DNA of 63,480 bases, filler included, from Octopus bimaculoides (lineage: Eukaryota): NCBI RefSeq assembly GCF_001194135.2. It is 12 parts of 9 records of this genome, joined end to end, with 100 filler letters (N's around TTAATTAATTAA, not from the genome) between each part and the next. Parts side by side here need not be neighbours in the genome. Positions count along the whole stretch, not along the records: positions 27,139 to 34,519 come from NC_069005.1; positions 34,620 to 36,271 come from NC_068996.1; positions 36,372 to 49,523 come from NC_068997.1; positions 49,624 to 52,163 come from NC_068983.1; positions 52,264 to 57,490 come from NC_069006.1; positions 57,591 to 59,351 come from NW_026428688.1; positions 59,452 to 60,938 come from NC_068984.1; 5 more parts are not named here. One strand, given 5' to 3'. The position numbers and the translations under genes were made by a program. A model generated the notes under the pieces. That model was not told where the DNA came from, searched no databases, and saw nothing but the letters and a program-made list of their open reading frames with translations. Numbering within the stretch: the stretch's first letter is position 1; the number at the start of each line of letters is the position of its first letter. Shown here in pieces: positions 27,449 to 59,999 of the stretch.

Positions 27449-27748
27449 ATCCCTAGCCTTACATGATAGACACGGATTGGAGTTTTTGGGTGGTTACCCG
27501 TTCTCAGCGTGTATTAATCCCCAGTTACTGATGAAAACTCACCCCACTCGCAAAATACTATACAGCTCAGAGATTTATTATACATTATTTCTCCCTTATC
27601 GAGGTCAGCGACGGTTCGTCGCTGGACAAAGCATATAGTATTTTGCGAATGGGGTGAGTTTTCATCACTAGCTGGTGATTAACATATACTGAGGACGGGT
27701 AACCAGCCAGAAACTCGAATCCATGTGTATCACGTAAGGCTAGGAATG
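27449..27748. mobile_element. Inverted-repeat element with two divergent family-B hammerheads
   Basis: Arms 27449-27562 and 27634-27748 are reverse complements. HHR motifs at 27470-27512 (-) and 27682-27728 (+). Confidence 0.75.
27682..27728 (+). ncRNA. Minimal hammerhead, family B
   Basis: acatata-CTGAGGA-c-ggg taacca gcc-a-GAAA-ctcgaa-TC^catgtgt. Confidence 0.65.
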
Positions 27749-28904
27749 NNNNNNNNNNNNNNNNNNNNNNNNNNNNNNNNNNNNNNNNNNNNNNNNNNNN
27801 NNNNNNNNNNNNNNNNNNNNNNNNNNNNNNNNNNNNNNNNNNNNNNNNNNNNNNNNNNNNNNNNNNNNNNNNNNNNNNNNNNNNNNNNNNNNNNNNNNNN
27901 NNNNNNNNNNNNNNNNNNNNNNNNNNNNNNNNNNNNNNNNNNNNNNNNNNNNNNNNNNNNNNNNNNNNNNNNNNNNNNNNNNNNNNNNNNNNNNNNNNNN
28001 NNNNNNNNNNNNNNNNNNNNNNNNNNNNNNNNNNNNNNNNNNNNNNNNNNNNNNNNNNNNNNNNNNNNNNNNNNNNNNNNNNNNNNNNNNNNNNNNNNNN
28101 NNNNNNNNNNNNNNNNNNNNNNNNNNNNNNNNNNNNNNNNNNTATATGTGTCTGTGTGTGTGTGTGTGTGTGTGTGTGTGTGTGTGTGTATATATACTTT
28201 ATATATTCTTTCTTTTACTTGTTTCAGTCAACTGACAGCAGCCATGCTGGAGCACCACTTTTTTATTCGAGCAAATAGACCCCAGATCTTATTCTTTGTA
28301 AGCCTAATCTTCTCTACTAAAGGTACAAAGCCTAAAATTTTAGGTGAGATTACACCTACCCTAGTACACAACTGGTACTTAATTTATCGATTCCGAAAGG
28401 ATGAAAGACAAAGTCGACCTCGGCGGAATTTGATCTTAGAACGTAGTGACGGGCGAAATACTGCTAAGCATTTCGCCCGGCGTGTTAGCGATTCTGCCAC
28501 CTCACCACCCTCAAATCTGTAAATAATCATAATAGTATTTGATAAGCTTAATGTAGATAAGCGATCATCGTACATTTTCTAGTGTAAATAGTCTAATATT
28601 GTAGCATAAAAGTCCCCGACGGAAAAAGCCCTCTCGTCGAGGGCTTACATGCCCAATATTAGACTATTTACCTTCGTCAATGCATTGTGATCGCTTATAA
28701 GCTTGAAGCTTATAAATTATCATCATTATTATTTACGTTTTTCTGTTGGGGGTTTATATGCTCTAGTATTAGACTATTTACCTTAGTCAATGCACGGTGA
28801 TCGCTTATAAGCTTTAAACTTATAAAATATTATTATTATTATTATTATTATTATTATTATTATTATTATTATTATTATTATTATTATTATTATTATCATT
28901 CAGT

Positions 28905-30178
28905 AGTCTTACTTTTATAACGCGCTTTCACTGAACTACCGAGTGCAGCTCTGTGTACCTTGGGTATGTGCTGTGGTTTGCTCTGATGCTCTTATGGTTA
29001 CTGTATTGAAAGTGTTTTACGTAGGATGTGTGCAGTGCCTAGTAGTGCTATTTTCTGTATGTTATATATATATGTTTCTTAGTCCTGGTGTTTTTTTATG
29101 CATTTGTCTAAATATTTTTTTATCATAGCTAATGTGCCCACTATGATAGGAATTGCTTCTATTTTTAGACTCCACATTCGAGTTATCTCTATTTCCAGGT
29201 CTTTGTATTTTGAAAGTTTCTCCATTTCTTTTAGAAAAACTTGTCATTTGTTAGTATTGATGCATCAATTAGAAAGCATTTTTTTTCTTTATGATCTCTG
29301 ACTATATCTGGCCTATTGGCCTTAATTTCTCCACGTGTGTGAAGTGACATATCCTATAGTATTGTTGGTTTCTCATTTTCTGTGACCTTTTTTAGCGTGT
29401 ACTTATACCATCTTTTTTCTGTTGTTATTCCATAGTGTTGGCATAGCTTCCAATGTATGTAGGTCCCAAACTCTGTCGTGTCTGTGAATATATTCCTTCT
29501 TAGCCAGGACTGGGCAGCCAGAGACAATATGATTAATTGTTTCTCGTCCATCTCCACACATTCTGCAGTTACTTGTTATGTTTCTTTTCATTATATGTTT
29601 TTGGTAATTTCTGGTGGGGAGGCTTTGGTCCTGTGCTGCAATCAAAAATCCTTCAGTTTCTGCTTTGAGTCCTGAACTTCTCAATCATTGCTGGGATTTT
29701 TCTCTGCCTATTTCTTTTGCGTTTAGTTTAGCCCAGTATTTGCCATGAAGGGGCCTTTCTTGCCATCGTTTTATCATGAACCGTTGATGTTCTAGTTTTA
29801 GTTTAGATTTCATTTGTTTTATAGCTTTTGTTGTTTCTTCTTTTTCTTCATAGTTATTAGGTAGCATGACTTCTTGTTTGTATTTGTAAGCTTCCTTAAA
29901 GACTGAAAACAGTTTTTTTGTTTTGTTCGTGTTTTGTGGCTGTTTGTATTAGTTTTCCTTGCTTCTGAAGTAGGTATTTTTGCAGTCCTATGGTGGTTAT
30001 TTTGTAATAGTTTTCCAGCTGTATAAGACCCCTGCCACCTTCTGTTCGTTGTATATATAGCCTTTCTATGTCAGATTTTGGGTGGTGCATCCTATATCCT
30101 GTCATTATTTTCTTGTATTGCTGTCTATTTTGATTAGTTCATTTAGTGTCCAGTTAAGAATATTGTAGCTGTAACTTA
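28905..30178 (-). mobile_element. 5'-truncated R4/Dong LINE with CCHC and restriction-like endonuclease, within (TAA)n
   Basis: HPKSDIERLYIQRTEGGRGL; ETEGFLIAAQDQSLPTR; CRMCGDGRETINHIVSGC; KANRPDIV; KYKDLEIE; LLGTAHILRKTLS*. (TAA)n on both sides. Confidence 0.92.
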
Positions 30179-30911
30179 TAATAATAATAATAATAATAAT
30201 AATAATAATAATAATAATAATAATAATAATAATAATAATAATAATAATAATTATTATTATTATTATTATTATTATTATTATTATTATTATTATTATTATT
30301 ATNNNNNNNNNNGTGCATGGCATCAAAGTGACACTGGGGTAAAATATACGAAGCTCATATCATGACTACTCGTCTGATAAGGGTACACCAGGCACATGCA
30401 TCACAACCATATGTGCGCAACATAGTGATCTCATATCAAGATAAACAGTGTACGACCTTGCAGGTGGGGCCCAGTTAGAATTTTCTTCAGGTTGAGTAAC
30501 CCATCTCACTTAAATGGTCCTTGAATAAGGATTTTTTAAGGGTGTTGAACGAAATACCCATGTTTCCAGAGGTGAATTATCTAAAGTCCAAAGAATTCCT
30601 CTAAACACATGGCTATGATGCTCCCCCACTAATTCTGCTCGTGACCAGAGATGAACATATCGTCAACTACTTAGGGACATGCTCAACTGACTAAGTTAAA
30701 ACAACTGGCAGGCAAATCCGTGGTGGTGAGCAGAATATTTGCTGTAGCCCATCTTTTATATCAAGACAAAACAATGTACTTGATAAGACTTCCCATCAGT
30801 TAAGATGAGAATCCATGAAAGCCACTGAATTAACCATAAAACCGTGTGGATACAAAAAATTTAAGGTCAACAGCAACAACATTTATATACAATTTACAAG
30901 CCCGCTCTTTA

Positions 30912-58049: not shown

Positions 58050-59110
58050 CTACTACCATGCTCAGCTTGTTGCTGGAGGTCTGTCATGAATATATCAGCT
58101 CTTCACTTCCCGTGAACTAAGGTGATGCTTTCTTTTCAAGTCTCGAGAATTTTCCGGAGACTCTTAGCACTTGCCAAATCCCGTTTTCTGGGTGTGCTCT
58201 ATTTTCATTTTCATGTCAATCTTTTCCGACTAACATCTAATTTCATTGTTCTCTTTACCTGGGGTACGGAGCAATTACACTGTGTAACACGATTTTAGTT
58301 TTTGTTTAGCAACTGTTATTTCCTATTTGCTTACCCCTAAAAAGTATAGAAAATGGCGAATATTTCCAACAAACTTTGCTTTTGTTACATTTATTCAAAC
58401 CCCAAAGAATCTCTCTCAGTACGTGGCTATAATGCTTCCTCACTACTTCTGCTCATGATCGAAGATGCACATATTGTCTGCCACTAAGGAACACGGTCAA
58501 GTGGTTATGGTCAAGCAACTGACAAGTAAATTTGTGGTATTGAGCAGAATATTTACTTTGATGATATTTCTGCTTCAGTATCTCAGCGCTGAATCTGTTT
58601 GAAATGAAATGGAAAATAGTTCAGTTTCAAAACATTGATGTCCATCCAGGTCACAAAAGCAAAGTTTAAAGGGGATAGATAGAAGGGAATAGATTTCTAG
58701 AAGTATATAGGAGATAACACTTACTGACCAAAGACAAAAAAAAAAAAAAAAATTACACAATGTTTTCATAGACGACAGATTTAATCCTCTCTTCGCGACA
58801 GTTTTCTTTCTGTTTTTACGATGATTCTGCTGTGCCCAGAGCAAGCAGTATCCATGATCAGGCACGATTTTCCACATGTCTACCAGCATAAATCGGGTTT
58901 CTGATGTTCGATTCCATGATCACATTGGATTATGAAGTCCCAAAATGTCTTCGCTTCGTCATTTTCTACCATATCCCATTTTCTCGCTTTTTTTCAATTC
59001 AAACTTGTCACATAGTTCCCTGTGAACCATTCTAATGACATTGTTATGCCTTCTCTTGTATTCTCTCTGGGCCAATTTGCTGCATTTGCTTCAAATATGC
59101 TGTCTTTCCA
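58050..59110 (-). mobile_element. R4/Dong LINE RLE/3' end, split by a nested insertion
   Basis: CSKLAQREYKRRHNNV..FWDFIIQCDHGIEHQKPD (59.1-58.8 kb). IEHTQKT..SLRKILET* resumes at about 58.2 kb. Confidence 0.8.
58281..58750 (+). mobile_element. Poly(A)-tailed repeat with an 8-bp target-site duplication
   Basis: AATTACAC at 58273-58280 and 58751-58758, with an A-run immediately before the second copy. Confidence 0.7.
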
Positions 59111-59828
59111 GCAATTTAGGGGAGAGTTAATTCGATTAAATTAACCCCAGTGATCGACTGGTACTTATTTTATCGACCCTAAGAGGATGAAAGGCAAAGT
59201 CAACCCCGGCGGCATTTGAATCCATAATGTAAAGACAGACGAAATGCCTACGATTCTGCCAGCTCACCGCCTTATATGGTCACAAATATTAAAGTAAGAA
59301 AGTAAAATGTAATTATTTTTAAGGTATTTATGTTCAGTAGAATATATTTAANNNNNNNNNNNNNNNNNNNNNNNNNNNNNNNNNNNNNNNNNNNNTTAAT
59401 TAATTAANNNNNNNNNNNNNNNNNNNNNNNNNNNNNNNNNNNNNNNNNNNNCTCGTGTTACAAAGTAATTTTCTTTGTAAAGTAATTGTTGAATCTTGAA
59501 CAATCGACTGAAGCAGCTGACACCTTTCATGTTTCCAATGTCTTCAGATCATATACTTCAAAAGTTATTTATATTCTGACATTCATATTCTAAGCAATCG
59601 CATTTTTGAATAACTATGCTGAAAATTAAAATGGATTTCAAAAATGAATAGGTTTTTGCTAATACTCGTCGACTGTAGAGCTACACGTTATTTAAGAACG
59701 GTCTGAATTTGGGTGGAGAATAAACAGATCATTTAATGCAGGAATTGTGGCAAAGGCGAATCCGAAGACCCCCCCCCCCACCAGCCTTTGGTGACATGAT
59801 ACTATTAGGAATTTATATATGTATACTT

Positions 59829-59999
59829 TAGGACACTCAGTAAGTTGTCATAAATAGGATTCACAGTTTCAAATGCAGGAGCTAAGAGCTACGATGCATT
59901 TTCATCAGCTATTATAGTAGCTGATAAGAATGCATCGTAGCACTTAGCTCCGGCATTTGAAACTCTGAGTCCTATTTCGACAACTTAGTGATTACCCTA
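59829..59999. mobile_element. Fold-back of about 170 bp made of two divergent hammerheads (family E)
   Basis: Near-perfect inverted repeat centred at about 59912-59917. HHR motifs at 59853-59913 (-) and 59917-59975 (+). Confidence 0.8.

Follow-up and report, generated by a model that had tools for sequence, protein, structure and literature searches.

In the accessible part of Craig et al. 2021 (PMC8557442), insertions of Penelope-like elements (PLEs) are described as 5′-truncated partial tandems, often with an inverted 5′-truncated copy directly at the 5′ end, tailed on just one side and favouring (TA)n; how the inverted ends form is still called undefined there. A PLE protein cuts AT-rich DNA on both strands and extends both, and initiation falls 111-118 nt into an open reading frame (ORF) whose start lies within the hammerhead, according to the available portion of PMC11167929. 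Dual minimal hammerheads ~100-700 bp apart on opposite strands have been reported from Schistosoma mansoni, and most minimal hammerhead motifs are related to truncated PLEs (Cervera and de la Pena 2014, PMC4209133, accessible text). Short ORF-less hammerhead repeats are treated as non-autonomous PLE derivatives in the accessible parts of PMC7229834 and bioRxiv 10.64898/2026.07.22.740005. Here we analysed a 63,480-nt stretch of the Octopus bimaculoides genome (GCF_001194135.2; hereafter the window), which joins 12 parts of 9 records with 100 filler letters between them and contains three palindromes with hammerhead motifs on opposite strands of their two arms. Each probably represents a one-off insertion, since decayed, of a Penelope-type element that is short, lacks an ORF and bears a hammerhead.

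Self-alignment of the window confirmed three inverted repeats singled out in an initial annotation, at 27448-27748 (L1), 39050-39701 (L2) and 59814-60013 (L3), and after simple-repeat masking these are its three best short-range inverted matches. In arm alignments, identity is 86.1% at L1 (99/115 columns, 0 gaps), 88.9% at L2 (209/235 columns, 2 gaps) and 85.6% at L3 (83/97 columns, 2 gaps). Because the arms differ by 11-14% and carry indels, a library or assembler fold-back is excluded; assembly fold-back was rejected as their origin, and the palindromes are real DNA features. All three loci carry a type I hammerhead layout on the minus strand of the left arm and on the plus strand of the right arm, with the 5′ ends central, as first annotated. 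The places given were right, but the boundaries lie wider, the L1 left arm extending to ~27300 and the L2 left copy spanning 38953-39445. Spacers of ~70, 160 and 3-6 nt had been proposed; L3 is indeed essentially spacer-free, whereas the L1 and L2 "spacers" are no separate part but family sequence belonging to the longer copy. Shuffle tests upheld the view that the three families are unrelated, since no likeness was found outside the hammerhead core, and the absence of an ORF was borne out by longest methionine-started frames of 80, 70 and 14 amino acids at L1, L2 and L3. The two arms overlap by 2 nt at the junctions of L2 (GC) and L3 (TA), and the hammerhead cleavage sites lie ~30-220 nt from the outer ends of the copies. 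All visible 3′ ends (7/7, partly placed by eye) fall within 10 nt of a TA/AAT run, compared with a background of 10.8%; target-site duplications are unreadable inside such microsatellites.

The annotated hammerhead pairs held up in layout, which is found in every arm, but not in their cores: four of the six are broken (L1 left, both at L2, and L3 right), and the other two (L1 right and L3 left) have a C-A mismatch in stem III. Rfam scans of the full window and of two sub-regions identified no hammerhead family, giving sub-threshold matches only, mostly to microRNA hairpins; the assignment is instead based on a type I descriptor, on pairing support in family 1 and on a family-1 model. The descriptor matched 8 places in the window, including four of the six arms and the copy at 47049-47003. 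Scores of at least 10 were reached at 2 places, against none in 8 shuffled windows, each of which gave 4-6 weak matches. The L1 right and L2 left arms failed the descriptor, and their layout was read from alignments. Over 59 nt the four copies of family 1 form a gap-free alignment, with 88% of cells paired and 3 compensatory pairs in stem I, a pairing level that lends modest support, being equalled by 31/500 shuffles. A model built from these four copies recovered the L2 right arm (E 0.007) and, weakly, the L3 left arm (E 4.7), among 9 matches that included three unrelated weak ones. Two further candidates, CTGATGA at 27528 and CTGAAGA at 36160, were rejected for want of GAAA or stems downstream. 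Solo hammerhead-like motifs of other families, with CTGANGA, stem II and GAAAC, lie at 168-315 (+) and 24425-24488 (-); neither passed the descriptor, and the 3′ region of the former recurs at 46114-46204.

Both other family-1 copies in the window (2/2) are solo, and they give the structure of the family. The 5′ part of the copy at 15333 is equivalent to the 3′ end of the copy at 46795 (score 79, 0/300 shuffles), which makes family 1 a circularly permuted monomer of ~228+124 nt, or ~352 nt, with 44% GC and no ORF. The L1 "spacer" (27565-27632, ~70 nt) begins with the last ~20 nt of this monomer (a short match; 12/300 shuffles scored as high) and corresponds to what lies upstream of the 15333 copy's hammerhead (score 52, 0/500 shuffles). 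Beyond the 3′ part of the L1 left copy lies a (TA) run at ~27266-27281. The family-1 pattern had 0 matches in metagenome contigs; a 17-nt pattern hit 28 loci in viral contigs, of which 3 matched the window, over 20-21 nt only, as expected by chance.

Family 2 has an ORF-less monomer of ~448 nt and 30% GC. In the longer L2 copy, 39401-39437 repeats 38953-38989 as a terminal direct repeat, the last 37-47 nt of the monomer thus recurring at the centre, and the 3′ end abuts (TA)n at 38921-38952. Four sequencing runs were compared with 38953-39760 at 80% likeness, skipping 39677-39760 as repeat and leaving out run X1, a possible source of the assembly, and small-share rows of organism B. The three DNA runs placed 462 (X2), 348 (X16) and 401 (X19) contigs; with hundreds per run, family 2 is dispersed and common to related organisms. 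Multi-copy status extends to the "spacer" and to the left flank as far as 38953, the spacer bins having summed depths of 530-1740 versus ~45 for one contig. Contigs from other loci join the spacer to the 3′ end, 39333>38957 in 3 and 2 contigs and, among the joints listed, 39362 to 38957, in the same circular order as the L2 minus strand; this permuted order elsewhere implies a tandem or circular source. In others the spacer is linked to the start of the arm across opposite strands (39293-5 to 39446-60), a link that simply reflects the colinear order of family 2.

Among the pieces listed, the L2 junction itself is rarely crossed. Loose ends behind 39445 numbered 9 (X2), 6 (X19) and 12 (X21). 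From 1374 pieces, 24 long ones were listed: 7 end at 39441-39446, with at least 60 further letters in five cases, and one, a contig of organism C, bridges 39445|39446. With 10 differences in 194 nt (95% alike) and single-copy depth, this contig is probably an orthologue. Among 15 of 76 joints listed, three more connect opposite strands (39080/39117, 39113/39178 and 39366/39436) and may be inversions with other breakpoints, in a table that gives no direction. Contigs of an independent individual (X2) show 0, 0 and 1 differences over 38953-39104, 39148-39323 and 39484-39676. The two L2 arms have decayed independently: in 15/21 of the arm variant rows listed, the opposite arm has the family letter, which points to neutral decay after one insertion; in 4/21 (three sites) both arms share a letter against the listed variant, and 2/21 are undecided.

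Family 3 is known from L3, where the arms meet at the TA overlap just 5′ of stem I. No terminal direct repeat of pLTR-like type was seen in family 3, and a bacterial promoter scan of L3 gave chance-level results, the bacterial model not being applicable to this sequence. By analogy with L1 and L2, L3 may be read as a one-off insertion product.

These observations bear on what actually moves. The initial annotation had proposed, as one option, a palindrome resembling MITEs (miniature inverted-repeat transposons) as the moving unit. For families 1 and 2 this was not supported: solo copies exist, the spacer forms part of the element and other family-2 copies, among the pieces listed, mostly break off at the junction, so the palindrome does not look like the moving unit. 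The suggested count of copies that keep both arms and the spacer came to 0/2 for the other family-1 copies and, for family 2, to the single bridging piece described above. Other points of the same annotation, a PLE origin, a non-autonomous nature and a recurrent by-product of PLE insertion, are supported. Four features of PLE-type insertions are present: a 3′-proximal minimal hammerhead of type I (which Rfam does not detect), a partial tandem (the direct repeat in family 2 and the permuted order between copies in family 1), an inverted 5′-truncated copy directly at the 5′ end, and a (TA)n or AT-rich microsatellite target. The mark of an autonomous PLE, an ORF with reverse transcriptase and GIY-YIG linked to the families, is absent, the family-1 and family-2 monomers closing on themselves ORF-free. 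Because PLE reverse transcription starts ~110 nt inside an ORF that lies just 3′ of the hammerhead, nearly every insertion carries a hammerhead close to its 3′ end, and an inverted 5′-truncated partner then yields a divergent hammerhead pair, which is the smallest form of the known PLE insertion pattern.

We consider it very probable that the palindromes are one-off insertion products, formed by two-ended priming or by fold-back. The moving unit would be a single-hammerhead monomer supplied in trans by an autonomous PLE, and families 1 and 2 resemble non-autonomous Penelope-like elements or retrozymes. At a TA-rich repeat, a 5′-truncated copy and an inverted second copy were likely laid down head to head in one event: two nicks would each prime a cDNA on the family RNA, from a tandem or circular template, and the two cDNA ends would be joined through a few shared bases. 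That two cDNAs primed at opposite nicks were joined in this way has about an even chance of being correct. In its head-to-head form the sequence is now likely without function.

Several points weigh against this account. Family 3 has no second copy in the window, and a pattern search of metagenome contigs also gave 0 matches. No autonomous partner is tied to any family, and the GIY-YIG-like fragment of the window is a lead only. The 2-nt junction overlaps are beyond resolution at this divergence. The shorter L2 arm lies wholly inside the span of the longer copy, nested at both ends, and both L2 arms share one non-majority letter (39216/39514), both of which also fit fold-back. Finally, bridging copies could lie beyond the 24 of 1374 pieces and 15 of 76 joints listed.

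Decayed frames resembling pieces of PLE ORFs were seen at 53411-54022 (+), 49089-49523 (+) and 12107-12430 (-). The first, the GIY-YIG-like fragment, resembles protein clusters with GIY-YIG in 18-27% of members (score 0.93-0.94), and had no match in protein searches at E<=0.001 or in Pfam. The other two were judged PLE-like by eye and had no Pfam match.

Fold-back is the closest competitor, a tentative one that we rate below two-ended priming, although the data separate the two poorly. In fold-back, the template-switch option of the initial annotation, the reverse transcriptase would stop, switch to or fold on its own new cDNA and copy outward, the second arm being a copy of the first. The nesting of the shorter L2 arm and the shared letter speak for it, and the spacer would then be the loop, but L3 has no loop-sized spacer, and the available part of PMC11167929 describes a PLE protein that extends both strands in vitro and is a predicted dimer. 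Weakly, the solo 46795 copy also counts against fold-back: at 47125-47190 its 5′ end is joined to ~60 nt of non-family sequence that likewise ends at a microsatellite. This piece weakly resembles 45960-46020 (1/500 shuffles), possibly a head-to-head join of two families.

A palindrome that moves in its entirety, as a MITE-like derivative of PLEs, is improbable; its transcript from either side would end in a sense 3′ arm and could be copied whole. The compact, nearly symmetrical L3 between TA-rich runs would suit such a unit, as would the organism C contig across the L2 junction; yet that contig looks as expected of an orthologue, the other family-1 copies are solo, and most family-2 contigs, among the pieces listed, break off at the junction. 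In the 57 kb of window sequence no complete second copy of any of the three palindromes occurs, whereas a true element with terminal inverted repeats does recur whole (25452-25907 and 58281-58752). For L3-like palindromes in particular, whole re-mobilisation is likewise doubtful: PLE reverse transcriptase would prime on the sense 3′ arm from either side, making a bidirectional palindromic non-autonomous retroelement, and such units, if real, would seed long double-stranded RNA (dsRNA) through the genome. A milder and likewise doubtful idea has the junctions record two-ended priming on circular retrozyme RNA. It is very improbable that the pairs are neighbouring insertions of independent origin, inverted duplications that arose locally at a later time, or artefacts of assembly, for although these families target the same TA-rich sites and L1 adjoins an assembly gap, each of the three head-to-head pairs joins members of one family without a microsatellite separating their 5′ ends, the arm divergence and indels are unlike library or assembler fold-back, and L2 is matched by the X2 pieces with 0-1 differences and bridged in organism C.

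As the initial annotation had anticipated, a read-through transcript is predicted by folding to pair arm on arm, with 84-244 pairs and -117 to -335 kcal/mol. This modelled fold would exclude the ribozyme fold, most cores being dead anyway. Each palindrome is a potential 100-250-bp dsRNA stem if transcribed through, as is true of any inverted repeat. No RNA specific to L2 was found in 12.9 million reads (~6% of run X21), in which 17 reads matched family 2, none at least 95% alike and hence none assignable to L2, a result that speaks neither for nor against editing or the suggested ADAR or siRNA substrate. Decayed monomers fold no better than shuffles (z -0.39, -0.64).

Table 1. Copies and hammerhead motifs of the three families in the window
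Feature	Position	Strand	Remarks
L1 shorter, inverted family-1 copy	27300..27562	-	5′ end ~27562; 3′ part matches solo copy to ~27300
L1 longer family-1 copy	27565..27748	+	3′ part lost in N gap from 27749
L1 left hammerhead remnant	27463..27521	-	core broken, G8>A and G12>A
L1 right hammerhead	27675..27733	+	intact core; mismatches in stem III and in the first pair of stem I
Solo family-1 copy	46795..47112	-	hammerhead 46998-47056, the best preserved; (TA)n at 3′ end; lacks an inverted family-1 partner
Solo family-1 copy, differently permuted	15333..15660	+	hammerhead 15499-15557; flanked by (AAT)n and (TA)n; lacks an inverted family-1 partner
L2 longer family-2 copy	38953..39445	-	~448-nt monomer plus terminal direct repeat; contains whole "spacer"
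L2 inverted 5′-truncated family-2 copy	39446..39701	+	terminates in (TA) run
L2 left hammerhead remnant	39175..39234	-	18-nt deletion takes out stem III and cleavage site
L2 right hammerhead	39496..39554	+	7-bp stem I, long stem II, palindromic loop 3, G12>U
L3 left arm	59814..59912	-	ends in TA-rich run
L3 right arm	59913..60013	+	ends in TA/GATA-rich run
L3 left hammerhead	59915-59851	-	core intact
L3 right hammerhead	59914-59978	+	G8>A

Other repeats of the window were recorded alongside. A hammerhead-less structure of clearly similar build occupies 28519-28843, with tandem 94-nt plus-strand copies (28641-28733 and 28750-28843), an inverted copy (28522-28627) and outer ends at AAT/ATT-type runs. 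Another hammerhead-less palindrome, at 36050-36271 and truncated by N at 36272, has ~58-nt arms that are almost identical and a 20-25-nt direct repeat of inner sequence just outside the left one. The element at 25452-25907 and 58281-58752 belongs to a MITE-like family of ~460 nt, its two whole copies being 77% alike with similar ends and degenerate terminal inverted repeats, and without a hammerhead; a fragment lies at 30577-30743. Simpler inverted repeats comprise a perfect 54-nt palindrome (16757-16810), an imperfect one of 56 nt (48205-48260), 42-nt arms around a (TA)n core (24544-24668) and 60-nt arms separated by 212 nt (10077-10414). Pfam matches to Helitron_like_N, zf-RVT and zf-CCHC mark other mobile-element fragments at 6759-7112, 29403-29684 and 32082-32603.

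MITEs are short, ORF-less, non-autonomous DNA transposons with terminal inverted repeats, whose transposase-binding termini are conserved. The palindromes resemble them in being short and ORF-less, with long inverted arms and TA-rich flanks. They depart from MITEs in that the sequence of their arms is also met solo and colinear with the "spacer", no unit recurs whole in the window, and their termini are the 3′ ends of retroelements. Programs that search for MITEs will misclassify palindromes of this kind.

The initial annotation knew of no description of the arrangement as a unit of mobility. As an arrangement it has been published: opposite-strand dual hammerheads are reported in the accessible text of PMC4209133, and an inverted 5′-truncated copy at the 5′ end in that of PMC8557442. 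In keyword searches we found no description of such a palindrome as a mobile unit, or of these families, although subscription papers, repeat libraries and supplements may hold one; the accessible parts of PMC13282606 and PMC9977147 do not describe these structures.

Compared with the minimal hammerheads in the accessible text of PMC4209133, the motifs here share the type I layout, the unpaired base before stem II and the opposite-strand pairs, along with a long stem II (families 2 and 3) and a 1-2-bp stem III with palindromic loop (families 1 and 2). They differ from the Schistosoma pairs in that the L3 cores lie much closer than 100 bp and most cores are broken; that text leaves divergent versus convergent orientation unstated. 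With non-LTR retrozymes, as far as the accessible parts of PMC7229834 and bioRxiv 10.64898/2026.07.22.740005 describe them, the families share the lack of an ORF, a GC content of 30-44%, a single type I hammerhead in each monomer, an order that is permuted or tandem, and a probable PLE origin. Unlike retrozymes, no copy here has two tandem hammerheads, and the window holds only partial tandems of ~1.1 monomers; relative to the retrozyme monomer range of 170-400 nt, family 1 (~352 nt) falls inside and family 2 (~448 nt) slightly above. This likeness is one of sequence, and inverted pairs are not described in those parts of the two sources.

A close match is with PLE insertions as described in the accessible part of PMC8557442: truncation from the 5′ side, an inverted copy directly abutting that end, a short terminal direct repeat, a 3′-proximal hammerhead, (TA)n targets and 3′ ends of unequal length. 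Unlike those insertions, the families here are ORF-less, have a permuted repeat unit of 350-450 nt and have no autonomous partner identified. Junction positions, overlaps and mixed-subfamily arms in short families with many copies could separate two-ended priming from fold-back. The arrangement is the published PLE insertion pattern, found here as a local example in two or three short non-autonomous families that we did not find described themselves.

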